Source of the DNA: an uncultured Alphaproteobacteria bacterium
GTDB lineage: Bacteria > Pseudomonadota > Alphaproteobacteria > Acetobacterales > Acetobacteraceae
DNA length: 64,000 nt
Direction: 5' to 3'
NCBI GenBank assembly: GCA_963759425.1
Contig: CAVWZM010000036.1
Location: 2,060 to 66,059, forward strand
In this document: positions 2 through 26,382 of the stretch, in pieces
How positions within the stretch are numbered: the first letter of the stretch is position 1
Layout of the letters: every line of letters starts with the position of its first letter
Made by a program: the position numbers and the translations under genes
Notes under the pieces: generated by a model
What the model was told of the DNA's origin: nothing
Databases searched by the model: none
Seen by the model: the letters and a program-made list of their open reading frames with translations, nothing else

Positions 2-1468
2 TACAGCCACGACCACGGTGTGGTGCATCGCGACGTCAAACCAGCGAACATCATGTTCACCAAGGAGAATCAGGTCAAAATAACCGATTTCGGCATTGCG
101 CGTCTGGAAGACAGCGAGATGACACAGGCCGGAATGGTGATCGGCACTCCGGCATACATGTCGCCCGAGCAATTTCTCGGCGAAAAGATCGATTTGCGTA
201 CGGACATCTATTCGACCGGTGTTGTGCTCTATCACCTGTTGACCGGCGAACGCCCGTATGAGGGCAACCTGACGACCATCATGCACAAGGTGCTCTACGG
301 TTCGCCACTTTCGCCGTCCCGGGTGTCAACGCTCGTCACCCCAGCGCTCGACGCGGTCGTGACCCGAGCCATGGCGAGAAACCGTGAGGATCGTTTCAAG
401 AGCGCCGCTGAATTCAACGACGCGTTGCAGGCGGCACGCAGACCTGGTTATGCATCACGACCGGCGCAAGCGGCGACCGCCAAGCCAGCGTCGGATGAGC
501 CTGCCTGGGGAACAGCCAGAAGCACCTCCCGATCGCCGTCTTCGCCGCGGATGCTCGGAATTGGCGCCCTGATCGCCGGCGTGGTAGTCGTCGGAGGTAT
601 TCTCGGCTGGCACTTTCTGAGCGGGCCCGCATCACAGCCGGTGGCACCCGCGACCAATACCGAGGCGACACGTCAAGCCGAAGCGACACGCCAGGCGGAG
701 GCTGCACGCCAGGAAGAGGCGGCTCGACAACAGCAGCAGGATGCACGTCAGGCGGAAGCCGCACGCCAGGAAGAGGCGGCTCGACAACAGCAGCAGGACG
801 CACGTCAGGCGGAAGCCGCACGCCAGGAAGAGGCGGCACGACAACAGCAGCAGGCCGCACGCCAGACGGAACTGGCACGCCAGGAGGAGGCCGCACGACA
901 GCAGCAGCAGGCCGCGCGGCAGGCGGACGCGGCCGCGTTGCGCCAGCAAGAAATGGTGCGGCAACAGCAGCAGGCGGCGGCACGCCAGGCCCAGGCTGAG
1001 GCGACTGCACGCCAGCAAGACGCGGCCCGACAGCAACAGGCAGCGCGCCAGGCGGAGGCGACCGCACGCCAGCAAGAGGCGACGCGACAACAGCCGCCGC
1101 CAGCCCCGCACCAGGACGAGCCGGCACGCCCGGCGGACGCACCACAAACCCGCTATGCGGTGACATCGATCAGCGCGGGCGTCGGCCTGGTATGCCAATC
1201 GGTGACGGGGGAAACCGCGGGCAGGTACGGCCTGGACAGCGCTCAGGGCATGGTCGTCAAGGGTGTTACAATAGGCAGCGCCGCCTCCAAGGCCGGCATC
1301 CGTCAAGGGGATGTCATTCTCAAGATCAAAGGCGCCGAGGCCAATAATCTATCCGTGCTGTCCAAGATCGCCGCCGACACCCCGGCGGGGCAGACTGTTC
1401 CGATCGATATTTTTCGCGACGGCGGGCACCAGCTGCTACAGCTTCAGGTCGATGATCTGCGTCGCTGA
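2..1468 (+). CDS. Membrane Ser/Thr protein kinase (PpkA-like), 5'-truncated by the window: kinase, TM helix, Gln/Ala/Arg repeat stalk, C-terminal PDZ domain
   Basis: HRDVKPAN, DFG and GTPAYMSPE motifs; TM segment LGIGALIAGVVVVGGILGW; C-terminal GMVVKGVTIGSAASKAGIRQGDVILKIKG is PDZ-like; frame is open to the window start. Confidence 0.9.
   Translation, partial: YSHDHGVVHRDVKPANIMFTKENQVKITDFGIARLEDSEMTQAGMVIGTPAYMSPEQFLGEKIDLRTDIYSTGVVLYHLLTGERPYEGNLTTIMHKVLYGSPLSPSRVSTLVTPALDAVVTRAMARNREDRFKSAAEFNDALQAARRPGYASRPAQAATAKPASDEPAWGTARSTSRSPSSPRMLGIGALIAGVVVVGGILGWHFLSGPASQPVAPATNTEATRQAEATRQAEAARQEEAARQQQQDARQAEAARQEEAARQQQQDARQAEAARQEEAARQQQQAARQTELARQEEAARQQQQAARQADAAALRQQEMVRQQQQAAARQAQAEATARQQDAARQQQAARQAEATARQQEATRQQPPPAPHQDEPARPADAPQTRYAVTSISAGVGLVCQSVTGETAGRYGLDSAQGMVVKGVTIGSAASKAGIRQGDVILKIKGAEANNLSVLSKIAADTPAGQTVPIDIFRDGGHQLLQLQVDDLRR
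670..1090 (+). repeat. Intragenic 57-bp tandem repeat encoding QAEAARQEEAARQQQQ(D/A)AR, about 4 good copies plus degenerate ones
   Basis: Unit caggcggaagccgcacgccaggaagaggcggctcgacaacagcagcaggacgcacgt recurs from about 692 with no spacers. Confidence 0.9.
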
Positions 1469-1754
1469 CTAGAGCAATATCAGCCTGACAGAAATTGCGA
1501 AGCCGAATCAGGCTGATGGAATGCTCGCGAACGCAAAGTTGGAGCGTTTCCACTAAAGTGAAAGCGCTCTAATGTTGCCGCGCCGCCAGCTCATTGTTTG
1601 GTCGTACGATTTGCACACCTCCCACGTTCCGCTCAGCGCGAGATCATGCTCAAGACGTGACGATCGCCAAACCATCACCGTGGCCGGCACAACCGGCGAG
1701 ACCCGGGTGCCGATGGTCGACGGCACGCGATTCCCCGGCGGAACGCCGTGTAGG

Positions 1755-2543
1755 TCATGGCTGCCGGTCGTATCGCCGAAAACCATAATTCGTCATCACC
1801 CATTTCAATCTAAAGCCGTATTGGGGGTCGGTCGCGTAAACGCCCGTGAGCGCGTCGGCGAAGGCTTCCGGATCCTGGCCCAGTTGCATCGCCTTCGCAT
1901 AAGGAGTGGCCGTTGCCAGCAACCTGCCATGCTGATCGAAAGCCTCGGCAAGCGTGCCGAACTTGCGAAACCGCGCGCTGACCTGGACGCTCTCACCGTT
2001 CACCACCTCCCGCGTCATGCTTTCCACCGCGTCCTGTCCGGGGGTCGCCTTCATCCCGAATGGATTGTTGCTCCCGGGCGGCATCGCCGCACCCCACGCG
2101 CTCTCGACAACCCATTGTGCGATCGTCACGGAGGCTGGAACGCTCCAGCGCAGGAACGAGGCAATCGCGCCATCAATCACGTCCCGCGGCACGATTCCGA
2201 CGTGACCAAACTGCGGCACCGGCAGCGCTCCATTGGTCACCAGCGGCCGCGCTGCCAGGGAATAGTAGGTGGCGCTCCCCGGATCGACATGTCCGGTAGG
2301 CGGGATCATCGACATCACCACGGCCTGGTATGCCTCGATCGCCAGGATCGTGCCGGGATCGGCAACGCCGGTGACCGGAACCGGGGTGTGCGGCTTGGGC
2401 AGCCGGTCGTTCAGCAGCGACTGAATGACGAAAACATCGCCCGGTGAATTGACCGCGTCCTGGCCGACCGAGGTAAAAATCGGCGCGGCGACACGGCCCA
2501 TCTCATCGGTGCTCAGTATTGTCGGAGACGGAACCAGGCCCAA
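1755..2543 (-). CDS. Peptidoglycan-binding domain plus GH73 (FlgJ-type glucosaminidase/muramidase) hydrolase; true start may be the internal Met (MGRVAAP)
   Basis: N-terminal SVG..N..DV..IQ.LLN..T..AI..YQ..G.VDP PG-binding pattern; AQWVVESAWG, NNPFGMKA, FRKF and YATDPQY GH73 motifs. Confidence 0.85.
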   Translation of the reverse strand: MGLVPSPTILSTDEMGRVAAPIFTSVGQDAVNSPGDVFVIQSLLNDRLPKPHTPVPVTGVADPGTILAIEAYQAVVMSMIPPTGHVDPGSATYYSLAARPLVTNGALPVPQFGHVGIVPRDVIDGAIASFLRWSVPASVTIAQWVVESAWGAAMPPGSNNPFGMKATPGQDAVESMTREVVNGESVQVSARFRKFGTLAEAFDQHGRLLATATPYAKAMQLGQDPEAFADALTGVYATDPQYGFRLKWVMTNYGFRRYDRQP

Positions 2544-2674: not shown

Positions 2675-4138
2675 TTGAAACGGCCATTTGCACTTGACAA
2701 ATCTCGCAATGAACGGTGGGACCAGGCTGCCGTGCGGCTGACGCTCACGACATTGCGCTGCCCCGATGTCGTCTCACCGGAGCGACGCGTGGTCACCGGC
2801 GGGGAGTATAGAATTGGCCGCGGGTCGGATAACGACTGGGTTCTGACCGATCCACTGCGCCTGCTCTCGAAGAGTTATTGCCTGGTCGCGTTCCGCTCCG
2901 GCCGATGGCAGATCGAGGATACCAGCACCAACGGGACGTTCCTCAATCACGAGATCGCGCCGATCGGAGAGCAGCCTCGGGCCTTGCGCAGCGGCGATCG
3001 GGTGCGTCTCGGCGCATACGAGATCGAGGTGGAGACAGGCGAGAGTGACGCGGAGCCCGTGCCACGCTGGCAGGACGACGACGATATTCGGCCCTCGTCC
3101 AGTGGCTTCACCGGCGCCGCGTCATCGATGCTCAACCCATTCGCGGTCGAACCCGGCGACGTGGGATTGCGGCCAGGTGCGGGAGGGCGTGACGCCGGGG
3201 TGCCAGCCGATTTCATGCCGTTCGGTACCCCGCCGGACCGAGTTTTTGGCGGTCATGTGCAGTCAGATCATTCGCCGGCAACTGGGGACGCGTTTCGGCC
3301 ACCAACCGCCGTCATTCCGATCCCGCAGGATTGGGCACTCGACGTGCCGGCCACCTCACCGGCCATGCCAAACTCGCCGGTCGTGCCACCCCAGCCAGTC
3401 ATGCCGGCCGCCTCCGTCGTCCCGGCGCCGGCCGCGGCCCCACCAGGCATCCCTTTCACCCCTGTCGTTCAAGCTCCGCCTGTGGTCCCGGTCGCACCAC
3501 CGACGCAGCCGTCGCCGCCGCACGCCGCAATGCCTGCCGCCAGCCCTGGGGGCGACCTGATGGCTGCGTTTCTGCGTGGCGCGGGCGCCGAAGATGCCCG
3601 GCCGGCCGATCCGGTTCGAACCATGGAGGCGTTGGGCGAGGTATTGCGCGCAACCGTCGTCGGGCTTCGACAGGCCCTGATCGCTCGCCACAGCATAAAG
3701 GGTGAGTTCCGCATCGAGCAGACGATGGTGCGTGCGAGCGGCAACAACCCGCTGAAATTCTCCGCCGGCGACGATGATGCCCTGGCGGCGCTGTTGGGGG
3801 TGGGCCGGCGCAACGCCATGCCGCCCGCCGCGGCCGTCACTGAAGCGTTGCGCGACATCCGGCTGCATGAGCTTGCAACCGTGGCCGCGATGCAGGAGGC
3901 GGTGCGTGCCCTGCTGGCGCGATTTAATCCCGCCTCGCTGGAACGTCAGGCGTCGCAAGGCAGCCTCGGCAAGCTTCTCGGTCAGGGGAAGGTGCGTGCG
4001 TGGGACGCCTTCGTTGCCCTTCATGCCGAGGTCTCGCAGGCGTTGTCGGATGATTTCGACAGCGTGTACGCCAAGGCATTCGCCCGCGCCTACGAACAGG
4101 CGTTGGTCGAGATGACCGATAGGGAGGACAGGTTCTGA
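2675..4138 (+). CDS. tagH: T6SS-associated FHA domain protein Fha/TagH (start may be the GTG near 2732)
   Basis: FHA motifs IGRGSDNDW, LSKSYC, DTSTNGT; C-terminal EFRIEQTMVRASGNNPLKFS and FARAYEQ; first gene of the T6SS block. Confidence 0.92.
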   Translation: MKRPFALDKSRNERWDQAAVRLTLTTLRCPDVVSPERRVVTGGEYRIGRGSDNDWVLTDPLRLLSKSYCLVAFRSGRWQIEDTSTNGTFLNHEIAPIGEQPRALRSGDRVRLGAYEIEVETGESDAEPVPRWQDDDDIRPSSSGFTGAASSMLNPFAVEPGDVGLRPGAGGRDAGVPADFMPFGTPPDRVFGGHVQSDHSPATGDAFRPPTAVIPIPQDWALDVPATSPAMPNSPVVPPQPVMPAASVVPAPAAAPPGIPFTPVVQAPPVVPVAPPTQPSPPHAAMPAASPGGDLMAAFLRGAGAEDARPADPVRTMEALGEVLRATVVGLRQALIARHSIKGEFRIEQTMVRASGNNPLKFSAGDDDALAALLGVGRRNAMPPAAAVTEALRDIRLHELATVAAMQEAVRALLARFNPASLERQASQGSLGKLLGQGKVRAWDAFVALHAEVSQALSDDFDSVYAKAFARAYEQALVEMTDREDRF

Positions 4139-4599
4139 CCTCGCGCCGCGCCCTCCTGCTGCTGCCGCTGGTCGCCGCGCGATGCGGGTCGTCGGAGCCG
4201 CCGCCACCTCCCCCCCCGCCCTCACTGGAGCTTGCGATCGTCTGTGGTCCCGGCACCAATCCGAACGACGCGGGAGCCCCGGCGCCGGTCGCGGTTCGGC
4301 TGTTTTTCCTGGCTGCCGATGCCCGGTTTCAGCGCGCCGACGTCTTCGCCCTGACCGAGCGGGAAAAAGCAACACTGTCGGAAGATCTGCTATCGTTCCA
4401 GGAGATCATCGTCCGTCCCGACCAGCACCTGACCCTTAATCCCGAACCGCCGAAGGGCGCTCATTTACTGGGTATCGCCGTACTGTTCCGCGATATCGAC
4501 CGGGCGAAGTGGCGGGCAACCGCGCCGCTTGCCGCCAGCGGTCCAACCAAGCTGACATTGAAGATAGATGGCATCGAGGCCTCGCTTGCGCCCACCTGA
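4135..4599 (+). CDS. tssJ: T6SS outer-membrane lipoprotein TssJ (probable CTG start; absent from the ORF track)
   Basis: Manual translation: (M)TSRRALLLLPLVAARCGSSEPPPP...TNPNDAGAPAPVAVRLFFL...FQRADVFAL...LGIAVLFRDIDRAKWRA...APT*; lies between tagH and tssK; GGAGG 7 nt upstream of the CTG. Confidence 0.88.
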   Translation: MTSRRALLLLPLVAARCGSSEPPPPPPPPSLELAIVCGPGTNPNDAGAPAPVAVRLFFLAADARFQRADVFALTEREKATLSEDLLSFQEIIVRPDQHLTLNPEPPKGAHLLGIAVLFRDIDRAKWRATAPLAASGPTKLTLKIDGIEASLAPT

Positions 4600-4689
4600 G
4601 CCGACCCGCATGCTCGCCGGCAGCCGATCCGCCCGACGCGAGTCGAAGCGGCGCGGACCGAACGGCCGGTGCAACGGGATGGAGCGTTC

Positions 4690-6017
4690 ATGACCTGGTC
4701 CAACCGCGTGGCCTGGCAGGAGGGCATGTTCCTGCGGGCGCAGCACTTCCAGCAGCAGGATCGTGCACTTGAAGCCCTTGTCCTCGGACGCACTGCAATG
4801 CTGCGGCCGCATCGGCTGGGGCATGGTGAACTGGGTGATCAACCGCGACCTGCTCGGCGACCGGGAAATTCGCGGCCACCATCGCATCTGGCGTGTTCGA
4901 GGACGGTACGCCGTTCTCCTTGCCTGGCGATGCCGACCACCCGGTTCCGCTCGATGTGCCGGAGGGCACGCGCAACACCGTCGTCCATCTGGCCTTGCCG
5001 GTCCGGCAGCCTGGCGCCGTCGAGATCGCTTCGGCCGATGCACCCGAAGGCCGTTATGGCCTGCAGGAGTTCGAGGCCTACGACACCCAGTCGGCTTCAC
5101 CCCAGCCGGCGGCGTTGCAGGTTGGCAGATTGCGGCTTCGCTACCTGCTCGAAAATCAGCGTCAGCCCGGCTTTGTCTGTATCGGGCTCGCCCGCATCGT
5201 GGAGGTGGCGGCTGATCGGCGCGTCACCTTGGACGACCGCTGGATACCCCCGGCGCTGATTTGCTCGGCCGCGCCTCCGCTGGCGGGCTTGTTGGCCGAA
5301 TTGTCCGGCATGCTGAACCAGCGCGGCGAGGCGCTGGCCGCCCGGATGACCGCGCCAGGACGCGGCGTCGCCGACGTCTCGGATTTCCTGCTGCTGCAAT
5401 CGGTGAATCGTTGGCAGAAATTGCTGAGCCACTGGGCGGACGCCGGCGCGGTGCATCCGGTCGATCTCTACGCCGTGCTGGTGCAAATGTCCGGCGATCT
5501 CGCGACCTTTACCGAAGCGACCCGCCGCCCCGCCGCATATCCCGCCTATCGGCATGAGGATCTACAGCGGAGCTTTGCTCCGGTGATCGCGGATGTGCGC
5601 CGGTCGCTCTCGGCTGTTATCGACCAGACCGCGACGCCGATCCCGTTGCAAGACCCTCGTCATGGCATACGCGTGGGCCAGATCACCGATCGCAACATCC
5701 TGCGCTCCGGCAGTTTCGTGCTTTGCGTGCAGGCCGACATGCCGACCGACACGCTGCAGCGATTGTTCCCGGCCCAGGTCAAGATCGGCGCTGTCGAACA
5801 GATCCGGGAACTGGTGAATGTCGCGTTGCCGGGCATTTCCGTCAGGCCGTTACCCGTCGCACCCAGGCAATTGCCATTCTATGCCGGGGCCAGCTACTTT
5901 GAACTGGACCGAAACAGCCCTCACTGGCAGCAGATGCAGTCATCCGGCGCTTTCGCCTTGCATGTGTCTGGAGATTTTCCGAACCTCAACCTCGAACTTT
6001 GGGCAATCCGAAGCTGA
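4690..6017 (+). CDS. tssK: T6SS baseplate protein TssK (frameshifts near 4820-4880)
   Basis: MTWSNRVAWQEGMFLRAQHFQQQDR N-terminus; LPVAPRQLPF and LELWAIRS C-terminus. Confidence 0.93.
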
Positions 6018-6232: not shown

Positions 6233-7582
6233 ATGAGTGACAATCCGTTCTCACAACCAGAAGACAACGAACGAACCGTCATTCGCCCAGCCGCCGGCCG
6301 CCGACCGGCGCCGCCTCTCGCCGCTACATCCGAGCGCCGCTCACCGCCGCCGGAAATGGCGGAGCCGGACAGCGCCGAACCGCAGTTCGTCGGCACCGAC
6401 CCGCTGCTTGCCGCGGCGGCTCCTCTCCTGCAACTGCTGGCCCGATTGTTCAATGCCAACCACCCGCCCGACGCCGGCGACCTGCGCGAACGCACAGTGC
6501 GGGAGGTGCGCGTCTTCGAACAACGGGCGCGCGCCAATGGCGTGCCGATGGAGCAACTCCGCCCCGCCCATTACGCCCTGTGCGCGAGCCTCGACGATGT
6601 TGTGCTCAACACGCCCTGGGGCAGCGGCGGCGGGTGGAATGCGCGCTCGCTGGTTTCGACCTTTCATCAGGAGGTCAGCGGCGGAGAGCGATTTTTCGTG
6701 CTGCTGCGGCAAATGAAACAGGAGCCCGGCAAATTCCTCCCGGTCATCGAACTGATGTATCTGTGCCTTTCGCTGGGTTTCGTTGGCCAATACCGGGTCT
6801 CGGCCCGCGGCACCGCCGAATTCGACAGCGTGCGCGAAGACACCTACGCGGTCATCGCCCGTCTCCGTCCACCTGGCGAAACCGAACTCTCGCCGCACTG
6901 GCAAGGCGTCTCCGCCCCCTACCGCCCGTCGCGTGCCCGGCTGCCTCTTTGGGTGGCCGGGACCGTCGGCGCGGCGGCGATCGCCGCCTTGTTCACCTGG
7001 TCCTCGACCGGGCTCAACACTGCCTCTGACGGTCTGTATGAACGTATGATCGGCAAGCCTTGGGATCATATGCCGCGGATCGCGCGGATCGCGGTGGCGC
7101 AGCCGCCCGCTCTATCGCCCGTGCCTCCCGAGCCCAGCGTGCTGGACCGGCTACGCGGCTTTCTACGGCCGGAGATCCAACAGGGTCTGGTCTCCGTCAT
7201 TGGCCCGCCCTCGACCCCGATCATCCGTATCAACAATCGTGGTCTGTTTGCCTCCGGCAATGCCGCGGTTCAGCCGGCATTCGTGCAGTTGCTCGAGCGG
7301 ATCGGCGCCGCCCTCAAGACGGAACCGGGCCGCGTCCAGGTGGTGGGGTATACTGACAATGCACCGATCCGCACGGTGCAGTTCCCTTCCAACTTCCAGC
7401 TTTCGTTGGCACGGGCCCAGGCCGCGCGCGCGATCATCGGCCGCGCGATAGACGATCCGGCCCGCCTATCCGCCGAAGGACGCGGCGAGGCGGAACCGAT
7501 CGGCCCGAACACGACGCCCGAGGGACGCGAGCAGAACCGTCGCATAGAGGTTGTGCTTTACCGGGCAGGAAGCCGGTCGTGA
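6233..7582 (+). CDS. tssL: T6SS TssL/DotU with C-terminal OmpA/MotB peptidoglycan-binding domain
   Basis: YALCASLDDVVLNTPWG, GGERFF, YLCLSLGFVGQYR; GYTDN...SLARA...NRRIEV. Confidence 0.93.
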   Translation: MSDNPFSQPEDNERTVIRPAAGRRPAPPLAATSERRSPPPEMAEPDSAEPQFVGTDPLLAAAAPLLQLLARLFNANHPPDAGDLRERTVREVRVFEQRARANGVPMEQLRPAHYALCASLDDVVLNTPWGSGGGWNARSLVSTFHQEVSGGERFFVLLRQMKQEPGKFLPVIELMYLCLSLGFVGQYRVSARGTAEFDSVREDTYAVIARLRPPGETELSPHWQGVSAPYRPSRARLPLWVAGTVGAAAIAALFTWSSTGLNTASDGLYERMIGKPWDHMPRIARIAVAQPPALSPVPPEPSVLDRLRGFLRPEIQQGLVSVIGPPSTPIIRINNRGLFASGNAAVQPAFVQLLERIGAALKTEPGRVQVVGYTDNAPIRTVQFPSNFQLSLARAQAARAIIGRAIDDPARLSAEGRGEAEPIGPNTTPEGREQNRRIEVVLYRAGSRS

Positions 7583-7604
7583 TGCTCGCCAGCGGAGGCC
7601 TGCC

Positions 7605-10600
7605 ATGAGCGCGTTGCTCCGTATCCTGCTGTCCCGGTGGTCGCTCAGCCTGATCGGCACAGTGCTACTGGCAATTTTGATCTGGCTGTTCGGCCCGCTG
7701 CTGCCACCGCTGGAGGGCTGGATCTACGCGGCTGGTGATTGTCGTGCTCCTGCTGGTGCTGTGGGCCGGGACCAATCTGGTGCTGGACTGGCTTGCGCGC
7801 AGGCGCGACTTGGCCCTGGCCGCAGGCCTGACCGAGGGCCTGTCCAAGACCGACGCGGCCACGTCCGAGGAAGCCATGGCGCTGAGCGAGAAGTTCACCG
7901 CCGCGCTGGCCTTGTTCAAGCGGGCGCGTGGCACCCGGGGTTACCTGTACCAGCAACCCTGGTACGTCATTATCGGGCCACCCGGCGCCGGCAAGACAAC
8001 AGCACTGCTCAATGCCGGCCTGAAATTTCCGCTCGCCGCCGAAATGGGCCAAGGGGCTGTGGCCGGTATCGGCGGGACCAGGCTGTGCGACTGGTGGTTC
8101 ACCGACAATGCCGTTCTGATCGACACCGCAGGCCGGTACACGACGCAGGATTCCGACGTAACCGTGGATCGTGCCGGTTGGGAATCCTTCCTTGGCCTGC
8201 TCAAGCGCACCCGGCCGCGCCAGCCGCTCAACGGGGTGCTCGTGGCAATCGCTGTGAGCGACGTCGCCCAGGCGACGCCAGACGAGCGGCTGTCGCATGC
8301 CCGAGCCATTCGGCGCCGGGTCAAGGAACTGGAAACCCGACTGGGCGTGCGGATGCCGATCTACACGCTGTTCACGAAGGCCGACCTGCTTGCCGGCTTC
8401 ACCGAATTCTTCGACGATCTGGACCGGACGAAACGGGCACAAGTCTGGGGCGTCACGTTCCCGCTGGGAGCGGCCAGGTCCGAGGCGGGCGGTGGCGAGG
8501 CAGGCACCAGCTTCGTGGCGGAGCTGCGTCTGCTGGTGAAACGCCTGAACTCCCGCCTGATCGAGCGGCTGCAGACGGAACGCAGCCCGGAGCGCCGGGC
8601 TCTGATTGCGGGTTTTCCCAGCCAGGTGGCGACGCTCGAGCAGCCACTTTCAGCTTTTCTGCAGGATGCCTTCGGCGGCTCGCGGCTCGATCCGGCACCG
8701 CTGCTGCGCGGCGCCTATTTCACTTCGGGCACGCAGGAGGGCACGCCTATCGACCGGCTGACAGCCGTCCTCGCCCGCTCCTTTGGCCTGGATCAACGCC
8801 GAGCGCCAAGCCTGCGGCCCGAGCGTGGGCGCAGCTACTTCCTCGGGCGGCTGTTGGGGGAGGTGGTCCTAGGCGAGGCGATGCTGGTGAGCGAGCCGCC
8901 GGGCACAGCACGCCGTCGGATGGCACTGCGTGCTGCCATGTTTGGCGCGGTGGGGCTGGCAATCGCCGGGGTCGCGCTGCTGCTCTACCTGGCACGGGGT
9001 GATGGTCAGCGGCAAATAGACGCATCGGCGGCAGCGCTGTCCGCCTTCGAGCAGACGGCGCGGGGCGTTCCGCTGGATCCGATCGGCGACAGCGATCTGG
9101 CGCAGCTCGCCCCAGCGTTGGACGCAGCGCGCGCCTTGCCATTTGGATATGAACCAAAGCCAACCACGACGAGTTTCTGGCCGAGTCTCGGGCTGGCACA
9201 GCAAGGCAAGCTAAACGCCGGGGCACTCGCAACGTACCGGCACGGGCTGCAGTACGGGTTGTTACCTCGGCTGGTATGGCGGCTGGAAGCGCAGATGCGC
9301 GGCAACATGAGCCGGCCGGACTTTCTTTACGAAGCGACACGGGTCTATTTGATGCTCGGGGGCCAAGGGCCGCTCGATCTCGACCTGGTGCGCGAGTGGA
9401 TGGCGTTGGATTGGCGCGTTGCCTATTCGGGCGCGACGCAGGTTCCACTAGTGGCGTCGCTACGTCGGCATCTGGACGCGTTGCTGGCGGAACCGTTGCC
9501 GGCCATCGGATTGGACGGAGAGCTGGTGGCGCAAACTCGTGCCACATTCAGCCGCGTGCCGGTGGCGCAGCGCGTCTACTCTCGCATCCGTCCATCCGCC
9601 GCCGCGATGCGCTTGCCGGCCTGGACGCCGGCCGAGGCTCTGGGTCCGGCAGGCGCACGGGTATTCGTCCGCGTTTCCAACAAACCGTTGACCGAGGGGA
9701 TACCCGGCTTTCTGACCGCTGACGGTTTCCACGATGTGCTACTGCGGTCGCTGCCCGATGCCGTGAAGGAGGTCGCCGCGGAAACCTGGGTCCTGGGCAA
9801 GCGTGTCGAGTTCAATCCGACCGGTCCGGAGACGCTGGATATCGGGCAGGCGGTCATTGGCTTGTACGAGGCTGACTTCATCCAAAGTTGGGACGCGATG
9901 CTGGCCGACCTCAATGTCGTGCCGCTGCGCAGCCTGACCCAGGCGGCGCAGGATCTCTACATCCTGGCATCGCCGCAGTCGCCGATGCGCGACCTTTTGG
10001 CCTCGGTCGTCAATCAGGTGAACCTTGCCAAACCTCCGCCACCTCCCGCGGCTGGGGGTGCGCCGGCCGATCCCGCCACCGCCCGTCTGCGGTCGATCTT
10101 CGAGGCGCTGCCCGGCCAGCCGGCGCAACTTCCGCTAGGGCATGAAGTGGATCAGCATTTCAAGCCGCTCCGCGACCTGGTGACGGGAGGACAGCTCGAT
10201 CAGGTATTGAAGGTGCTGAGTGATTTGCAGCAGCAGCTTGCCAAGCTGGCTGCCGCCCCGATCGGTGCGGCGGCGCCGACGTTACCCACCGGCAATGATC
10301 CTACTCTGGCGTTGCGGACCGAGGCCGAGCGGCAGCCGCAGCCTCTGTCACGCTGGCTGGGCGGCATCGCGAGCGCGGGTATCGTGTTGCGAGGCGGAGG
10401 GGCGCGGCAGCAGGTGGCAGCAGCGTTCAATGGCGCCGGCGGTCCCGGGACGCTTTGCCCGATCGCCGTGAATGGCCGCTTCCCGTTCACACCGGGTGCG
10501 GCGATCGAGACACCGCTTGGTGATTTCGGCAAGCTCTTCGCTCCGGGCGGCTTGCTGGACGGCTTCTTCAACACGCAGCTTCGTCCCTACGTCGATACGT

Positions 10601-17700: not shown

Positions 17701-20199
17701 CTTACCATCGCCGATAACGGGTCACTGACAATCGACGGCAGCGCGAACCAGGGATCAATTCTCAGCCTGCCCGCCCAGACCAACCTGCTGCAGGCGACCG
17801 GCGGTATCTCGATCAATCCGTCGACCATCCTGACCCTGGCGCTCGACCCAACTCTGACGATGACGACGCAGACGGGGGACATCACCCTGCGCCTTGGTTC
17901 GCCGATCAACGTGGGCGTCGCCGGTGTCGGCGCCATCACCATGCGCGCCGGTGTCGGCGGCACCTCCAGCGCACAGATCAATCTGAACAGCGGCGTCAGC
18001 GCCGGCAGAGATGAGTTCACCTCCCAGCCGCTCGGCTCGATAACGCTGCAGGCGGCGGCGGGATAAATCTGAACGCGGCGCCCCTGGTGGCGGCAACCGT
18101 CGATCTGAGCAATCTGTCCGCAGGCGGCATAACCCAGACCGGCGCCGGCATCACAACAAACACCTTACAAAGCGCGCTCGGGGTCGCCGGCCCGGTCAGC
18201 CTTTCGGGCAGCAACACAATCGCCAACATCGGCAATTTCCAGGTCGCCGGCGGTTCGTTCGCCTTGAATGACACGGGACCGCTGTCGGTCAACGGCATAC
18301 TCAGTGCGCCGGCGATCAGCCTGGCCTCCGACAGCATCGCCGTCCCCGGCATGGTAACAGACGGGGGCAACGGCTCGGTAAATCTGAGAGCGATAAGCGG
18401 CGGCATTTCGGAGACCGGGACATTGATCCCGGCGCGCTGTCAGGCAGTGCTGCGACTGGCGCAGCGTTCACGGGTGCGACGCCGACAAGCAATCAGATCG
18501 CCATCTTGGCGGGCTTCAGCGCCACCACGGGCTTCACCCTGAATGATGCGTCCGGGCTGTCGGTCACCGGGCCGATCAACGGCGGCAGCAGCGCCACCAT
18601 CGTCGCCGGAGGGCCACTGACCATCGGCGGCAGCATCAGCGCGACGCAGATCGCCCTCGCCGGAAGCGACGTCGCGATTCCCGGTGTGGTAACAGACGGC
18701 GGCGGCGGCGCGACGAGCCTGATCGCCACCACCGGCGGGATCGCCGAGACCGGCACGCTGGTTGCCGGCAACCTGTCGGTCAGCGCTCCCGGGGCCGTCA
18801 GCCTGACTGGCACGTTCCAAGACACCAACCAGATCGAGTTCCTCGGACCGGTGTCCACGGCCGGCGACCTCAGTGTGAATGACGGCGCGGTTCTGACCGT
18901 CGTCGGCACCGTCAATGCCGCCTCGATAACGTTGCAGTCAGGCCCGGGCATATCACTCGGGTTCGGCGTCGTCGGCGACGCGGTGCAGGCGATCTGGCGG
19001 TGCCGAACGGCGACGGATATCGCTGGTGACCGACACATTAAATGTGCTCACCCCCGGCAGCATCAGCGCACCCGGGGCACGGTGGAACTGGTGCCGTTCA
19101 CAATCGGCGCGCCGGTGACCGTCGGACAGGCGACAGCGTCCGACCTGACGATCACGCCCGATGCGCTCGCCGGCATCAGTCCGGCCACCGGCACGTGCGT
19201 ATCGGCCTCCTCACAGGCGAGACGACCCGCGGGCAGGCAGCATCAATTTCGCCGCGGCGACCGACCTCACCGGGGTCGCGAGGACCGTCGAGCTGGATAC
19301 CACCGGCACCATCACCCAGGCCGCCGGCGCGACCGTGACCGCGACGACGCTCACCGGTCAGGCGGGGCAGTCGGTCACGCTGACAGAGCCGAACCAGATC
19401 GCCAGCCTGGGCGGCTTCACCGTGGGCTCCGGCGCCTTCGCGCTACCGACAATCAGCCCTTGGACGTCGATGGGCTGCTTCCGGCACCCGATCTGCAGGT
19501 CTCGGCGATCGGCCAGATCATGCTCAATGGGAACATCCAGACGACCGGGGCGCCGCCCATCGCCCGAAGCGGCCCGCGCCAGCTGCCGTCACGTAGCTTT
19601 CTGACGGCGCAGCCAAACGGGTCCGGCGCGGCGAGCCTGGTGCAAAACGGCATCACCAGCGTCGAGGGTCTGGGTGGCGATACGGCCGATCCTGGTGCTG
19701 CAAGTTCCCCCCACGGGCGGGAGCATAAGCTTCAACGACCTGAGGGCCGCCCACCGCAAATCTGGTGCTCGGGCTCGGTGACGGCAGCGCGACCGGTGTT
19801 ATTCGGGTTGGTGGCCTGCTGGTCCTTGGGACGGGAGGTTCCGCCACCTTGGTGGGTAGCGTGGCGGGCAATAATGGGCCGGGCGCGGCGCAGCTCGCGG
19901 CGATCCAGCCGGCGCCCAGTCTGACCCACACGTTCAACAACTGCGAAATCGGGACGACGGTCTGCACCGGCCCGATCATCATCGTGCCGCCCACCACCCC
20001 GCCGATCACCCTGACCGATAACGTACAGACCTCGGTGCTCGGCGGCCTGGAGTATTTCGGGTTCGTGCCGACCGGACTTCCGCCCGTGGCCGCCCTGCCA
20101 CATCTGGAGTTCCTCGCATTGCCGAGCCTGGCGGCGCCGCGACGGCAGTTGACCGATCCGGATGTGGTGCCGCCCAACGTTTCTGTCCGGGATTACTGA
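14776..20199 (+). CDS. Filamentous-haemagglutinin-like TpsA exoprotein of roughly 1800 codons, split by many indels
   Basis: TPS domain PTGGVVVGG...IDWRGFDIG...VTFRQP...NTVTGGNPSRIAGSINANGQVVLVNQSG; GTLLIDP motif; Gly/Thr/Ala beta-helix repeats in consecutive ORF fragments; directly after TpsB. Confidence 0.85.
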
Positions 20200-20201: not shown

Positions 20202-23200
20202 ATGGACCGATTGACCGGCGCCTTGCCGATCCTGTGCGCTCTGGTGGTGGGCATGCTTGCCGGCTGCGCCAAGCCGCCAGCGGGCGCCTATGTCAGCGCG
20301 CCGGGCGCCGCCTCTTCGGGTGAGGCTGTAAGTCTGGGCCAGAACGCCAGCGGCGAAGCGTGCAGCCAGTTGCAGGGTAGCGCGCCCGGCCTGGTGAACA
20401 TCTACTGCGGCGACTGGAAACAGCCCGCCGCCAGAGTCCGCGCCGGTGGTCCGGGTTCGCCCGGCGCTCTGTCCGGGATCGCGACGTCCGGCGACTGGCG
20501 CTCCGGCCTGGATCTTCGTTACGCCTGCGCTGGGCCCACCCCGACATCGATACTCGGCAACGAGCCGGCGGTTCTGCTCCACTGCACCCGCCGGGTCGGT
20601 GGGTGGCGGCAAATCGCCCTGGTCGCCGATGTCGGCGGGCAGATCTGGCTGGCGGACGGCATCCTGCCGGCACTCCCCGTGATGGAGCGCTCGATCGGCC
20701 TTCTATCGGGCCGCGTCAAACCGGATGCTGCAACGCTGCCCCGGTCGGCGGCGGACACGCTGATGGCCAATGAACTGGCGGCGCACGCCTTCAGTGCCGG
20801 CGATGTCGGACAGTACGAACAGGCCATGGCGCTGGGGGCGCGGGCGAACCTGGCGGAGAATTTCGCCGCTGCCGAGGTCGCCTATCGCGCCGCCCTTGTG
20901 TTGCAGCAAAAGGCGCTGGGACGAGACAATCCGGACACGGTCAACGCGCTGATGCATCTGGCGCTGCAGGCCTCCAACCAGGGCCATTTCGCCACCGCCG
21001 ACATTCTGTTTCGCCAGGCCGGCACTCTGGCACCACGTGCCAACGACCGCGCGGCCTCGGCCAGGCTGCTGCACTATCGCGCGCTCGACGCGGCCAACCG
21101 AGGCCACGATGACGCGGCGCTTGCGCTGCTTGCCCAGGCGGAGCAGGCGTACGAGGCGCTGCTGCCGCCGGACATTCTTATCAGCGGCCAGCCCGGCGCA
21201 CGGCTTGCGTCCACCGCGGGCGGCGGGTTTCCCGACCGGCGCCTGATGGTTGATCCCGGTCTGCAATCGGCGATGATGGGCGTGATCGAAGTGCGACGCT
21301 ACCGCGCGATCGTGCTGCGGTCCGAGGGGCTGACGGCGGAAAGCGAGGCGTCGATCGCATCCGCCCGGGCGCTGGCGCAGGCGAACGGCATGGTCATGCC
21401 GCTGGTGTCCGCGCGTCTGTCGCGAACCTCGGGCACCACCGCCGTCGCGGCCGGCGACCTGACCGGCGGCGATGCCGACCTGACGCATTCGGAAACGAAT
21501 TTCGGCGAGGTCCTGCCGCATACCAGGCCGCTGGCGCAGACCGCCCTGCTCCGGGCCGGGGATGCGGTGCGCCAGGGGAAGACCCGCAGCGCACTGGCGT
21601 TGTGCGAGACCGGCACGACCTTGCTGCGCGACCTGCCGGCGGGTTCCGACCCGGCACTATTGTCGCCATGCCTGTCGGCGTACGCGGCCGAGGCGAAGCG
21701 CCACCCTGGCGAGGGACAGTCGCTGTTCGCGAAGATGTTCGAGACCGCCGAACTGATGCAGGACAGTGTCACCAGCCGCCAGATCACCGAGGCGGCGGCT
21801 CGGCTTGCGGCAGCTTCGCGTGATCCAAAGGTTTCCGAGGCGATCCGGCGCCGGCAGGATGCGACCGAGAACCTGGCGGAACTTTACCGTGCTCGAGATG
21901 CGTTGTCGCAGCCGCCTCCGCCGGGTTCTCCCGCGGTCGGGGTGACGGAGCGCAATCCGGCGGCGTTGGACAAGCTGATTGCCGCGGCCCAGACCGATCT
22001 GGCGGACGCCGACGCGGCGCTGCAGGAGGCGGCACCGAATTACGGGCAACTGGTGCAGGAGGTGGTGCCGGCGGCAGCGGTGCTTGCCGCGCTGGCTCCA
22101 GGTGAGGCGTTCCTGTCGGTAACCCTGAGCGACGACGGCGCGTGGGTGTTCCTGTTGCGGAACGGAACGATTACCGCATCCGCGATCGATACCGACGTGA
22201 AACGGATGGCCGCGCTGGTGCAGCGGGTCCGTGCCAGCGTTCAGCCCGGTGCGGCTGGAGTGCCGGCGTTCGATACGGAGGCGGCGCAGGCGATCTATCG
22301 GACTATACTGGAGCCGGTGTCGGCGCCGCTGGCGGGCACGACGTCACTGGTGGTGGCACCGTTCGGGCCGCTGCTGTCCATGCCGTTCGGGTTGCTGTTG
22401 ACCGGTCCGGCTGATCCCACGCATCTGTCAGACGCGCCATGGCTGATCCGCCGGATGACCGTGGCCCACGTGCCGGCCGCCACGAACTTCGTTTCGTTAC
22501 GTCGGACCGCGGGCAATTCCCGCGCGAGCAATCCGTGGTTTGGCTTCGGCGGCTTCAAACCCGTTACGCTGGCGCAGGCGGAGCAGACGTTTCCACCCTC
22601 GGCCTGTGGCGACAGCGCCCGATTGTTCGCCGGCCTGCCGAGGCTGCCTTACGCGGATCGGGAGTTGGAGGCGGCGCGGCAAATCCTCGGCGCGCCACGC
22701 TCCGATACGATGCTGGGACCGGCCTTCACCGCGCCCAACGTGCTGCGGGCCCGCCTGAAGGACTATCGCATCCTGCACTTCACCGCCCATGCGCTGTTGC
22801 CGACAGATCTGCGCTGTCAGAGCGAACCCGCGATCGTTACGTCTGATCCGGCGGGAGCCCGCGATGCCGCGGGGGCGTTGCTGACGGCCAGCGCGGTCGT
22901 CGGGCTGGACCTCGATGCGAACGCGATCATCCTATCCGCCTGCAATTCCGGCGGCCCGAATGAGCGCACCGCGGGTGACAGCCTTTCGGGACTGGCGCGG
23001 GCTTTCTTCTACGCCGGCGCCAGGGCCATGCTGGTGACGCATTGGTCGATCAGCGACGAATCGTCGGCCTATCTCGTGGTGGATACCTTGCGCCGTTACG
23101 CCGAGGGCAAATCCGGCGGGCTTGCCCTGGCTCTGGCGGGCACGCAACGAAATATCCTCGATGAAGCTGGCAAGAGCCTTCCGGCTAAACTTGCGCATCC

Positions 23201-23315
23201 GTATTACTGGGCGGCGTTCGCATTGATCGGCGACGGCAGCGCCAGCTATGGTGGCGAGAGGCATGTTGCATCCGCGTCGCCTCGCCCAGTGTCATCACCG
23301 GACTTGGTCCGGTGA
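20202..23315 (+). CDS. Lipoprotein with TPR-like helical region and C-terminal CHAT (caspase-like) protease domain
   Basis: Lipobox LAG-C; TPR-like ALVLQQKALGRDNPDT; CHAT motifs LVVAPFGPL, ILHFTAHA, ILSACNS, LARAFFYAGARAMLVTHW, HPYYWAAF. Confidence 0.92.
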   Translation: MDRLTGALPILCALVVGMLAGCAKPPAGAYVSAPGAASSGEAVSLGQNASGEACSQLQGSAPGLVNIYCGDWKQPAARVRAGGPGSPGALSGIATSGDWRSGLDLRYACAGPTPTSILGNEPAVLLHCTRRVGGWRQIALVADVGGQIWLADGILPALPVMERSIGLLSGRVKPDAATLPRSAADTLMANELAAHAFSAGDVGQYEQAMALGARANLAENFAAAEVAYRAALVLQQKALGRDNPDTVNALMHLALQASNQGHFATADILFRQAGTLAPRANDRAASARLLHYRALDAANRGHDDAALALLAQAEQAYEALLPPDILISGQPGARLASTAGGGFPDRRLMVDPGLQSAMMGVIEVRRYRAIVLRSEGLTAESEASIASARALAQANGMVMPLVSARLSRTSGTTAVAAGDLTGGDADLTHSETNFGEVLPHTRPLAQTALLRAGDAVRQGKTRSALALCETGTTLLRDLPAGSDPALLSPCLSAYAAEAKRHPGEGQSLFAKMFETAELMQDSVTSRQITEAAARLAAASRDPKVSEAIRRRQDATENLAELYRARDALSQPPPPGSPAVGVTERNPAALDKLIAAAQTDLADADAALQEAAPNYGQLVQEVVPAAAVLAALAPGEAFLSVTLSDDGAWVFLLRNGTITASAIDTDVKRMAALVQRVRASVQPGAAGVPAFDTEAAQAIYRTILEPVSAPLAGTTSLVVAPFGPLLSMPFGLLLTGPADPTHLSDAPWLIRRMTVAHVPAATNFVSLRRTAGNSRASNPWFGFGGFKPVTLAQAEQTFPPSACGDSARLFAGLPRLPYADRELEAARQILGAPRSDTMLGPAFTAPNVLRARLKDYRILHFTAHALLPTDLRCQSEPAIVTSDPAGARDAAGALLTASAVVGLDLDANAIILSACNSGGPNERTAGDSLSGLARAFFYAGARAMLVTHWSISDESSAYLVVDTLRRYAEGKSGGLALALAGTQRNILDEAGKSLPAKLAHPYYWAAFALIGDGSASYGGERHVASASPRPVSSPDLVR

Positions 23316-23375: not shown

Positions 23376-24009
23376 CTACGCGCCGAGATTGATCACCTGC
23401 ACACGGCGATTGCGTGCTTCCGGCGTGTTCGGCGGGGTTCGCACGAGCAGTCCGGTTTCGCCCATGCCGATCGCCTCCAACCGGGACGGGTCGAGCTTGA
23501 ACGTCGCTGTCAGAAATGCGACCACAGCCTGCGCGCGGCGCTCCGACAATGCCTGGTTCAGGCCAGCGGGACCGACCGTGTCGGTGTGGCCTTCGATCCG
23601 AAACCGGTACGACATCAGTTCGTTGCTTGTCAGCGCCTGACCTAGTTCCGTGAGCGTTTTGATCGCGGCGGGCGTCAGCTCAGCGGAATTGGTAGGCGAA
23701 CTGCACCGAGAGGTTCACCGACGGCGCCGCCGCCGTCTCCTGGCCGGCCGTTGCCCGATTGTGCGGCAGAGATCGGGCGGGGAGAGCCGTCGAAGACGAG
23801 CCAGCCGCACTGTTGGCGGCGTTGGCCGGGGTCTCGGTGGCGGGTCCGATCGGACGGATGCCGCGCGTGGCGCCCGACATTCCGGCGCCGGGCTTCAGCG
23901 AATTGATGATCTGGTCCGCGGACGGGTTGTTCTGGGCGTATGCCACCCCGAGGTGGGCCGAGGCGATGACCGTCAGGCACCCATATAAAAAGCGGCGATG
24001 ATTGTTCAT
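23376..24009 (-). CDS. Secreted OmpA-family peptidoglycan-binding protein (frameshift near 23690)
   Basis: Signal peptide ending AYA-Q; SADQIINSL...TRGI; FRIEGHTDTVG, NQALSERRA, NRRVQVINLG. Confidence 0.88.
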
Positions 24010-24393
24010 GGCGTCCGTTTTCGTCCCTGTCGTTTGCAGTATAAATCCTCGGGGCTCAAATGTCTTCCGGTTTCGCTTCTCTTTCCGCCGCCTCACCCGT
24101 CTGCCGTGCGCGGCTCGGCCGAACATAGTCCCATCGCCGACTGGCGAGGGCGTCACCAGGGGTCGCCCGCCCTTTCGCGCAAGCATCGCCGGGTGTCACG
24201 CGCGGCGCTCGCAAGGTGCTCCAGGTCCCGGAACTCGGACAATCTAAATAAGGGGTTACTGGTTTCTGTCCTAACGGGCTAGATTGGTGGGGTTCTCGTC
24301 ACCAGACCGAGAGTTCGAAACTATGGGGACTTCGCCGTGCTTCGCCCGCGCGTGGCCTGACCCTCAAGCTTCAGTCGCGAGGTTCTGATCGGC

Positions 24394-26382
24394 ATGGATC
24401 GGCTGGGCAAATACGAGATCCGCGGCGAGATCGGCAGCGGCACGACGGGCAAGGTCTATGAAGGCTGGGACCCGCAGATCCGGCGCCGTGTCGCGATCAA
24501 GGCGATACGCCTTCTCGACGCCGCCGACAGCGAAGCGCGCGAGCAACTTGACCGCTTCAAGCAGGAGGCGCGGTCAGCCGGGCGGTTGCAGCATCCGAAC
24601 ATTGTCGGCGCGTTCGACTACGCGGAAACCCCGGAACTGGCCTACATCGTGATGGAGTTCGTCGACGGCCGCACGTTGAAGTCGATCCTGGAGGATGGCC
24701 CGCGTCCGGACGTGGCGGAAGTGGTGCGCCTGATGGACGGTCTGCTGAGCGGTCTCGACTACAGCCACCGCAACCAGGTCATCCACCGTGACATCAAGCC
24801 CGCGAACGTCATGGTCACCGCGGCAGGCGTGGTGAAGATCGCCGATTTCGGGATCGCTCGGATCGGCGGCGGTACGATGACCCGTGTTGGGACCATCATG
24901 GGGACGCCGGCCTACATGTCCCCCGAGCAAATCCAGGGGATGGAGACCGACGCGCGCACCGACGTCTATTCCGCCGGCGTCGTGCTGTTCCAGTTACTGT
25001 CCGGCAAGCGGCCATTCGATGGCACCATGGCGACGATCATGAACGCGGTGGTGAACGGTCCGACGCCGAGGGCCTCGGCGAAGTGTGCCAGGGTGACACC
25101 GGCGCTGGATGCGGTCGTTGCGCGCGCCATGGCCCGCTCGCCCGATGACCGTTACGCCACCGCCGCCGCCTTCAATCAGGCGCTGCGGGCCGCCGTCGGG
25201 GCCAAGAATCAGCCTGGCCCGATGATGCCACGAACGATGACGCAACGATCGTTGGACAGGCGAGCGTGGTGGGCGGTCCGGCGCGGCCTCCATCGTCGGG
25301 TCAGACCCGGCGCCGGGACGAGTTGGAACCTGTCGCCGCGCCGACGTCGGGTCGCGGTGCCGCCACGCCATCTCTTGCTCCAAAGCTACTGATCGGCGCA
25401 GCGGTTTTGCTCGTGGTCGCCGGCGGCGTGTTGTGGGCGGTGACCGGACGGGCGCCGGAGCCGCGGCCTGATACCCTCGCCACGGGCGTGCCTGCCCAGT
25501 CACCGTCCGCGCCGCTTCCGCCGGCTCCCGAACCCCGGTCACCACCGGGTTTGGCTAGCGGACAACCCGCGACCGAACTGCCGTCAGCCTCGCTGCTGCC
25601 GCCGATGACCACGCCAACCTCTCCCGGCCTGCCCGATGAGCCCGAGGGGCCGCGGTCCGAAACTCAGGTCGCGGCGGTCAAGCCAGCCACCACGGTGCCA
25701 CCCAATTCAGTTCGCCGAGCGATCGCCTCGGTGGTGAGTGCGGCGGGTTGCAGCGTGGTGACCGGCGACGACCAGCCGGAGGCCACGCCGGTCCTTCGCG
25801 GTGTTGTTGGGCGTGGCCAGAGCGAGACGGCTTTGCGTGCCGCTGTGAGGGATGCCGCGCCGGAACTGGCACCCGATTGGCAAGTCGCCATTGCTGACGG
25901 TCCCTACTGCGCCGTGCTCGACACCGTGCGCCCTTACGCTCGGCCGTTCGGCGGCGGGCCTGGTCTGGGCGTTACCTTGGCCGGACGCCGCACCAGCCTG
26001 GTGGCGGACGAGCTGATCATGCCGCGGGTCACCATGCCCGATTTCGCCGGCTCGTTGCAGTTGGACTACGTCGCGAGCGACGGCAGCGTCGTGCACCTGC
26101 ATGAGGCGCTGAACGGCGTTCCCTATGCCGCCCTGTCCACCTCCGAGTTCGGCAAACCCAGGCCTCCGGGGTTCGGTGGGTGGGCGGTCGACAGACCATT
26201 CGGCACCGATCTGATTGTCGGGATTGCCAGTTCCAGGCCGCTGTTTCGTTCACCACGACCAGCGAGCGAAAATCTCGAGAACTACCTGCGTGACCTGCGG
26301 GTCGCGCTCGACCAGGCGGACCGTGAGGGCGCACGGATCGCCGCCGGCGGTATTGCTGGTGACCACCAGCGCCAAGCCGTAA
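24394..26382 (+). CDS. Membrane Ser/Thr kinase (PpkA-like) with periplasmic DUF4384-like domain (frameshifts near 25250 and 26345)
   Basis: GSGTTGKVY, VAIK, HRDIKPAN, DFG, YMSPEQ; TM LLIGAAVLLVVAGGVLW; LDYVASDGSVVHL...PFGTDLIVGIASSRPLF. Confidence 0.85.

Follow-up and report, generated by a model that had tools for sequence, protein, structure and literature searches.

The threonine-phosphorylation pathway of type VI secretion systems (T6SS) has been described as TagQRST, PpkA, PppA, and Fha1 together with TagF in the H1-T6SS of Pseudomonas aeruginosa, as RtkS and PpkA in Serratia, and as PpkA, TssL, and Fha in Agrobacterium (PMC10482370, PMC3953482, PMC5995506). Mechanistic detail on how a T6SS decides to fire is limited to a few such systems, for example TagQRST-PpkA of Pseudomonas and RtkS of Serratia. 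In this work, we describe a T6SS locus in the window, which is the whole stretch of 64,000 nucleotides (nt) that was analysed (G000:C36:2060-66059). The source, G000, is an Acetobacteraceae metagenome-assembled genome (MAG) of 4.4 Mb in 46 contigs with 64% GC. One half of an Acetobacteraceae T6SS, comprising its membrane complex and its regulation (tagH-tssJKLM-tagF-pppA), is located in the window, with an accessory module directly behind it. The module consists of the two-partner secretion (TPS) genes tpsB and tpsA and of the genes for a TPR-CHAT lipoprotein that is exported, an OmpA-like protein, and a Hanks-type kinase of the membrane. This module is widely conserved and is genetically tied to T6SS clusters and their kinase. 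The known part of the locus is probably the threonine-phosphorylation pathway, and the new part is a candidate input module.

The locus resembles the pathway of Pseudomonas, Serratia, and Agrobacterium in that the cluster encodes a T6SS-type FHA protein and a PP2C phosphatase as well as TagF and a Hanks kinase that passes the membrane once. This kinase is located directly behind tagF-pppA in some relatives. However, the modelled ectodomain of the kinase is of the DUF4384 type (PDZ in a second kinase), not vWA as in PpkA, and TpsB/TpsA, the predicted periplasmic TPR-CHAT protein, and the OmpA-like protein stand in place of TagQRST or RtkS. No TagQ/R/S/T-like or RtkS gene is present within 1-26.6 kb of the window because all genes of that stretch are assigned, which bears out the absence of TagQRST-like genes claimed in the initial annotation.

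The TpsA fibre of the HMW1/HMW1B pair is anchored through a Cys loop. In the CdrA/CdrB pair of P. aeruginosa, the TpsA fibre is freed by the periplasmic cysteine protease LapG (PMC4694147). The TpsA described here is similar to both in its C-terminal Cys pair, its short tail that is predicted to be periplasmic, and the cysteine protease that is placed to cut it. However, this protease is a caspase-fold TPR-CHAT lipoprotein that is encoded in the operon of the fibre. It has no LapG-type match in Pfam or NCBIfam. The module contains no LapD-like gene and no c-di-GMP receptor was seen in it; a Ser/Thr kinase and T6SS genes are found instead. LapG/LapD is a working analogy only.

DdvA of Myxococcus xanthus is a transmembrane anti-sigma factor with a periplasmic TPR-CHAT region (PMC11506125; PDB 8rw5/8rot). 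It is similar to the protease described here in having an extracytoplasmic TPR-CHAT region, and its module signals across the inner membrane. However, DdvA is fused to its own transmembrane helix and anti-sigma domain and has an incomplete active site, whereas the protease described here is a lipoprotein of its own in which the His/Cys dyad is invariant, and its predicted output partner is a kinase rather than a sigma factor of the extracytoplasmic function (ECF) class. Craspase, in which Csx29 cleaves Csx30 (PDB 7y84, 8eey, and others), shares the TPR-CHAT architecture. DUF4384, the fold of the kinase ectodomain in our model, is frequently fused to proteases, and some of the Csx30 proteins that the TPR-CHAT protease Csx29 cleaves have it as their C-terminal domain (bioRxiv 10.1101/2022.08.17.504292). 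Unlike the module, Craspase is a cytoplasmic, RNA-guided phage-defence system without a secretion system or a kinase.

Full-text searches returned no paper on the wiring of a TPS-CHAT-kinase set into T6SS and none that pairs "CHAT domain" with two-partner secretion. Judged by title and abstract, the few papers in which T6SS, PpkA, or hemagglutinin come up together with CHAT or two-partner secretion do not concern this wiring. Two T6SS reviews are silent on such a module. In the one on accessory factors (2026), the words two-partner, hemagglutinin, caspase, TpsA, and protease are absent and the sole "CHAT" is the name of an author. In the one on regulation (2023), the words CHAT, two-partner, hemagglutinin, and caspase are absent ("protease" was not searched).

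Conservation of the module and its linkage to T6SS clusters

The identities of the window genes were assigned using Pfam and NCBIfam profile searches and are listed in Table 1. These searches confirmed the order tagH (fha)-tssJ-tssK-tssL-tssM-tagF-pppA followed by tpsB-tpsA-CHAT that had been given in the initial annotation, and the row that continues with the OmpA-like gene and the kinase (kinase 2) is genuine. The ompA gene was correctly recognised between CHAT and kinase 2, but its strand had to be corrected to minus and it is split. The T6SS-related stretch stops at ~26.6 kb, where a peptide transporter of the ATP-binding cassette type comes next. The remaining T6SS core, including the tssB, tssC, tssA-like, and hcp genes that were to be sought on other contigs, was located on contig C28:20-34 kb of G000 and encodes TssG, TssF, TssE, two TssC paralogues, TssB, a TssA-like protein, ClpV, and Hcp.

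The neighbourhood survey fetched loci with the CHAT protein and searched their 10-kb flanks with the full T6SS query set from the Pfam-annotated relative G152. A narrower survey with the window's own T6SS proteins and the same flanks gave 5 linked loci, which is a strong under-count. In nearly all of the 80 Acetobacteraceae loci, a giant TpsA-type open reading frame (ORF) ends within ~20 nt of the CHAT start. A homologous kinase is located directly behind CHAT in 53 of the 80 loci, usually with an OmpA-like gene after the kinase. The 10-kb flanks contain T6SS genes in 23 of the 79 loci that are distinct. The commonest order is TpsB-TpsA-CHAT-kinase-OmpA(-)-two small genes-TssG/F/E/C2/C/B(-)-TssA-like-ClpV-Hcp-PppA/TagF/TssM/L/K/J/Fha, as represented by the G152 locus (TpsB-TpsA-CHAT-kinase-OmpA-...-TssGFE-TssC2-TssC-TssB-TssA-like-ClpV-Hcp-PppA-TssM-TssL). 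In other loci, the cassette is divergent from tagH via a GH73 gene (G213, G208) or is located behind Hcp (G011, G132, G096). The order of the window, with the cassette behind pppA, recurs in L099 and, outside the family, in G283. The placement of the cassette between pppA and the kinase, as the initial annotation described it, thus stands for the window and fails as a general rule, being one arrangement among several.

The co-occurrence of CHAT and TssM (with TssC added) was determined in an even draw of 200 genomes of the family that are at least 90% complete. Both proteins are present in 68 genomes and both are absent in 97. CHAT alone is present in 10 genomes, one of which has TssC, and TssM alone is present in 25, which gives an odds ratio of ~26. 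T6SS is therefore found in 69 of 78 CHAT carriers, and TssM in 25 of 122 non-carriers. At the genus level, 48 of 53 CHAT-positive genera are TssM-positive. CHAT and tssM share one contig in 24 genomes, and the distance between them is 10-47 kb in 22 of these. In assemblies that consist of 1-2 contigs, the two genes are linked in 7 cases and unlinked in 1.

Linkage was also found outside the family, where 4 (G283, G432b, G613, and G452) of 10 loci examined in other alphaproteobacterial families at 28-40% identity are T6SS-linked. The linked loci belong to families f62 (with the order of the window), f67, f45, and f101. The cassette is T6SS-linked in the cultured bacteria Acidocella facilis ATCC 35904, Acidocella aquatica NBRC 112502, Humitalea rosea DSM 24525, and Belnapia sp. 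F-4-1. The coupling to T6SS that had been put forward from the window thus withstood the survey, since homologous cassettes did not prove to be usually unlinked.

In G132, the kinase is located directly behind tagF-pppA and TPS-CHAT is at the opposite end of the same cluster. The kinase of G077 is also directly behind tagF-pppA. Seven T6SS clusters without CHAT were inspected, and all six that show more than tssL-tssM contain a Ser/Thr kinase. The kinase is a constant member of these T6SS clusters and so fits the role of PpkA. Taken together, the module is very probably a genuine T6SS-associated accessory set.

Table 1 Features of the T6SS-related stretch of the window
Feature	Position	Strand	Evidence and remarks
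Ser/Thr kinase 1 (C-lobe onward)	2..1468	+	Pkinase and PDZ matches; gene start at G000:C36:1683, 377 nt upstream of the window
GH73-type N-acetylglucosaminidase	1755..2543	-	Pfam Glucosaminidase 3.8e-22; divergent from tagH
TagH/Fha	2675..4138	+	FHA (PF00498) and T6SS_FHA_C (PF20232, 8.9e-52); TIGR03354, 271 bits
TssJ lipoprotein	4135..4599	+	TIGR03352, 105 bits (cut-off 31.6); position kept in relatives
TssK	4648..6017	+	Three frames: 4648-4830, 4814-4855, 4860-6014
TssL, long form with OmpA-like peptidoglycan-binding end	6233..7582	+	DotU and OmpA; TIGR03349, TIGR03350
TssM	7735..11118	+	IcmF-related N, middle, and C domains; TIGR03348, 1079 bits
TagF	11115..11705	+	PF09867 (TagF_N); TIGR03373
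PppA, PP2C Ser/Thr phosphatase	11582..12421	+	PP2C_2; Stp1-type PP2C, 150 bits
tpsB, Omp85/ShlB-type exporter	~12917..14744	+	POTRA_2 and ShlB fragments; at least 3 frame changes
tpsA, giant secreted fibre	~14773..20199	+	TPS domain PF05860 1.4e-25 (9e-31 in G004); at least 6 frame changes
TPR-CHAT (caspase-fold) lipoprotein	20202..23315	+	Intact ORF, 1037 aa; CHAT PF12770 2.5e-47
OmpA-like peptidoglycan-binding protein with signal peptide	23376..24195	-	Translation; OmpA-family NCBIfam; split over two frames
Ser/Thr kinase 2 (PpkA-like)	24394..~26382	+	Pkinase 1.7e-51; at least 1 frame change near 25.2-25.4 kb

The TPR-CHAT lipoprotein

The CHAT protein consists of a lipobox (LAG-C22), a Cys-rich alpha/beta N-domain (residues 43-170), helical repeats (183-617), and the CHAT domain (635-1015). 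The lipobox Cys is kept in at least 90% of CHAT sequences. Residues H863 and C914 of the CHAT domain and C54, C69, C109, and C128 of the N-domain are invariant in 52 CHAT sequences. The protein is predicted to be an exported, periplasmic lipoprotein, and this location fits because the N-domain has four invariant cysteines. No Pfam match was found for the N-domain (residues 23-210). The nearest relatives of the window protein all come from Acetobacteraceae or Acetobacterales genomes or MAGs.

The structure of the CHAT protein was modelled with a predicted local distance difference test (pLDDT) value of 88. The best solved match of the model in Foldseek is DdvA (E 2.3e-11), followed by separase and Csx29 (range 1e-9 to 2e-11). 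The conserved His-Cys dyad of the CHAT domain and the TPR-CHAT architecture shared with separase, Csx29, and DdvA place the protein in this group.

The complex of CHAT residues 190-1037 with the 80-residue TpsA tail was predicted in three runs with controls. The median ipSAE is 0.39 (0.02, 0.39, and 0.56 in the three runs) and that of the best control is 0.00. The score mark is reached by 58 of 80 solved pairs and by 2 of 110 pairs that are mismatched. Only 7 of the solved pairs reach it with a score no higher than 0.60, as do both of the mismatched ones, and a pass at such low scores is more often false than true unless the guess is already likely. The runs share at least 0% of their contacts, and the tail has a pLDDT of 23-34. 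These predictions hint faintly that the CHAT protein may bind the TpsA tail.

The TpsB exporter and the TpsA fibre

The window TpsB is 58-63% identical, in alternating frames, to intact TpsB proteins of congeners with 592-603 residues. An intact orthologue exhibits the full architecture of POTRA domains and ShlB/Omp85 barrel. A POTRA/ShlB-type TpsB next to a TpsA with an N-terminal TPS domain identifies the pair as a two-partner secretion (type Vb) system. The TpsA proteins of relatives are single intact ORFs of 1802-3490 residues, and no effector-like or receptor-binding domain other than the TPS domain was identified in TpsA.

The C-terminal module of TpsA is common to 66 distinct relatives and the window copy. 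It consists of a Cys pair (N-x-C-x6-C), a Pro-rich stretch, and the terminal motif D-x-D-[LV]-x-[LV]-P-N-[VI]-[SA]-x-x-D-[YF]. The window TpsA ends with FNNCEIGTTVC ... TDPDVVPPNVSVRDY-stop, and the CHAT gene starts 2 nt past this stop. The TpsA of G152 is also in two overlapping frames (L115:6132-13239, with frames 6132-9929 and 7360-13239), which is probably an indel in another long-read MAG.

The kinases and the OmpA-like protein

Kinase 2 consists of a kinase domain, a transmembrane helix, a Pro-rich linker, and a periplasmic domain of ~230 residues. Its intact orthologues have 716-758 residues. The ectodomain of the window protein has no Pfam match, and its model (pLDDT 93) has TM values of 0.79-0.82 to DUF4384 clusters of the ESM Atlas. 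Kinases are found in the matched clusters together with DotU/TssL proteins, papain-like peptidases, and proteins that have a caspase domain. Pfam DUF4384 (PF14326) was detected in kinase orthologues at 24.0 and 20.9 bits, which is under the cut-off of 27. Foldseek against PDB gave nothing for the ectodomain at E of 0.001 or lower, and VIA-align gave a generic beta-sandwich or macroglobulin-domain likeness only (Z 8.4). On the basis of the model, the ectodomain probably adopts a DUF4384-type fold. A PpkA-type vWA domain was not matched in either kinase.

A published survey of kinases in bacteria records one proteobacterial family whose ectodomains are DUF4384 and FGE-sulfatase. DUF4384-type domains are also located on DotU/TssL proteins, which make up 39-51% of the members in two ESM Atlas clusters. 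This is a second, independent tie of the domain to T6SS membrane complexes.

Kinase 1, the paralogue that the initial annotation had recognised upstream of the T6SS genes, has a kinase domain 51% identical to that of kinase 2. A transmembrane helix, a repeat stalk, and a periplasmic PDZ domain follow its kinase domain. The stalk between helix and PDZ is rich in Q, A, R, and E and is encoded by a tandem repeat at 687-927 (4.2 copies of 57 bp or 19 residues, 90% matches). Orthologues of this kinase are present in only ~12 of 60 congeners, and in the two that were compared, G011 and G023, they are located on a contig other than that of the T6SS genes. Kinase 1 is thus not a conserved part of the system and was rejected as a conserved second input.

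The OmpA-like protein has homologues in the cassette of most relatives (Pfam OmpA 3.7e-22).

Proposed role of the module in T6SS activation

The threonine-phosphorylation pathway is represented in the window by an Fha protein whose C-terminal domain is T6SS-specific, by TagF, and by a phosphatase of the PP2C type and a Hanks-type kinase of the membrane. Judging from what is known of these families, TagH, TagF, PppA, and the kinase would form a switch like those of Pseudomonas, Serratia, and Agrobacterium, in which TagH is expected to be the FHA-domain target. The best supported step is that the kinase would be the PpkA equivalent of the cluster and would phosphorylate Fha (or TssL), thereby licensing T6SS assembly, and PppA and TagF would oppose it.

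The step next in support is that TpsB would export TpsA as a surface fibre. By analogy with CdrA/LapG and HMW1, the C-terminal Cys pair may plug the fibre in the pore and keep the ...PNVSxxDY tail on the periplasmic side, where the CHAT lipoprotein could reach it. The most speculative step is that the CHAT protease might act on the TpsA tail, on the DUF4384-type ectodomain of the kinase, or on both, and might in this way gate the kinase. A mechanical or chemical event at the fibre would then be converted into kinase activation. The OmpA-like protein may tie the assembly to the cell wall. In function, the module would serve as pathway input instead of TagQRST or RtkS.

The chances that the module feeds the T6SS on-switch are evenly balanced. 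The chain that the initial annotation had drawn, from contact sensing through cleavage to Fha phosphorylation, is hypothetical. Its specific form, in which pulling or contact of the fibre exposes the tail and thereby engages or releases the protease, which cuts or unmasks the DUF4384 ectodomain so that the kinase phosphorylates Fha, is a tentative proposal that we consider somewhat doubtful. If true, it would be the first protease-gated, fibre-coupled T6SS trigger and would place a bacterial caspase-like enzyme in envelope signalling. The candidate input module, which comprises a fibre, a pore, a predicted extracytoplasmic caspase-like protease, and a wall anchor, is conserved in dozens of genera of the Acetobacteraceae and in four or more further alphaproteobacterial families. 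If its link to T6SS is functional, it would offer a contact-sensing model for T6SS as well as functions for periplasmic CHAT proteases and the widespread DUF4384 domain. This model is directly testable since several carriers are cultured and non-fastidious.

Several findings weigh against a role of the module as T6SS input. The prediction of the CHAT-TpsA complex is weak and its tail is modelled at low confidence. The co-occurrence counts across relatives are phylogenetically non-independent, and no uniform pattern is seen within genera (g22, g24, g35, and g41 are concordant, and g1, g53, g73, and g109 are discordant). Of 93 TssM-positive genomes, 25 lack the module, yet all six informative CHAT-less clusters keep a kinase, and the module is not needed for a T6SS of the threonine-phosphorylation type. 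In nine cassette genomes, TssM and TssC were both not found, although CHAT-kinase-OmpA is retained in several of the nine; the coupling between cassette and T6SS is therefore not obligatory. Paralogous tpsB-tpsA-CHAT copies without the kinase are located away from T6SS genes, which fits a self-contained function of fibre and protease. The tpsB, tpsA, ompA, and kinase genes lack read-through in the window, so that function in this strain is unproven.

The most probable alternative is self-contained fibre release. TpsA would be an adhesin or matrix fibre that is hooked in TpsB by its Cys pair, and its tail would be cut by CHAT as LapG does for CdrA (PMC4694147). The kinase and the OmpA-like protein would regulate or anchor the release, and the adjacency to T6SS would reflect a shared "cell-contact island" and co-regulation rather than a signal passed to the T6SS. 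The Cys pair, the conserved tail, and the translationally coupled protease gene speak for this alternative, as do the LapG/CdrA precedent, the kinase-less paralogues, the nine cassette genomes in which no T6SS was found, and the kinase retained in CHAT-less clusters. However, it leaves unexplained that the kinase adjacent to the protease is the same kinase that is located behind tagF-pppA elsewhere, that T6SS is so much more frequent among carriers (69/78) than TssM among non-carriers (25/122), and that linkage persists over five families despite shuffled gene orders. We regard fibre release on its own as rather unlikely.

T6SS requires cell contact, and the fibre and the secretion system could also be partners without the fibre being a sensor. 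The fibre would keep targets near for contact-dependent T6SS, and the kinase, responding to other cues, would steer both fibre display via the protease and T6SS assembly. The linkage and co-occurrence data speak for this cooperation as they do for the role as T6SS input, and both the contact requirement and fibres of 1800-3490 residues suit it. The lack of any identified effector-like or receptor-binding domain in TpsA beyond the TPS domain counts against it, and the direction of information flow is unreadable from genomes. Such cooperation is unlikely and less probable than fibre release.

Frame changes in the window

The frame maps were obtained by aligning the window copies with intact orthologues of congeners. 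At least 13 frame changes were found in 26.6 kb, with at least 3 in tpsB, at least 6 in tpsA, 2 in tssK, 1 in the OmpA-like gene, and at least 1 in kinase 2. In tpsBA, this is at least 9 changes or ~1.2 per kb. The frames of TssK were mapped using tblastn with the G213 TssK, and its PF05936 and TIGR03353 matches begin at profile positions 50 and 65. CHAT, TssM, TssL, and TagH are intact.

Frame changes are also found elsewhere in G000. Comparison with congeners showed splits in 7 of 23 unrelated genes that are located on six other contigs (for example C5:4628-6017, C10:46277-47672, C22:206188-207211, and C32:18453-21510). These genes have 8 frame changes over a total of 21.5 kb, a rate of 0.37 per kb. 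The T6SS core genes on C28 are likewise split. Two other metagenomes contain near-identical strains, whose short contigs differ from the window by single-base indels at 16931, 18056, 18428, and 19444, and each of these four sites falls in the overlap of two successive tpsA frames. The breaks are most likely assembly errors because frame changes occur genome-wide and because independent contigs carry indels at the four tpsA sites. For the same reasons, the first interpretation of tpsB and tpsA as pseudogenes was dropped.

Real mutations in tssK, tpsB, tpsA, ompA, kinase 2, and the C28 core, by which the module and perhaps the whole T6SS would be decaying, are a very unlikely explanation, since the density of changes in tpsBA and the split C28 genes that suggest decay are set against a rate in unrelated genes beyond the tolerance of any living genome, the indels in independent contigs, and four unbroken genes.

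The marker completeness of G000 is 53%. The rpoB and rpoC genes, which were looked up as a check of assembly quality, were not found in G000, so the genome is truly incomplete. The assembly is indel-noisy, and any pseudogene call in G000 therefore needs read-level support. The source run of the MAG was not found, and the stretch was detected in two rhizosphere runs only (9% and 5% of words). Because of the assembly errors, the window is a poor exemplar of the module, and the cultured carriers are better material.

Other observations on Acetobacteraceae T6SS clusters

The CHAT-T6SS region occurs as a mirror-image duplicate at both contig ends in G097:C4 and JBGPND010000004.1 (L041/L042), and both duplicates probably arose as hairpins during assembly. 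Two adjacent TssC (VipB) paralogues are present in G152 (L116:5417-8461) and in G000 (C28:25.4-28.8 kb). In many Acetobacteraceae T6SS clusters, the OmpA-like gene is separated from tssG by two conserved genes of small size (L116:1-921, L039:17320-18399; G000:C28:20236-20709), and Pfam gave no match for the two genes of relatives. The GH73-type N-acetylglucosaminidase of the window lacks a signal peptide. A homologue holds the same position beside tagH or tssL in the relatives L013, L051, L066, L087, L119, and L121, and this enzyme may be a dedicated wall remodeller of this type of T6SS.

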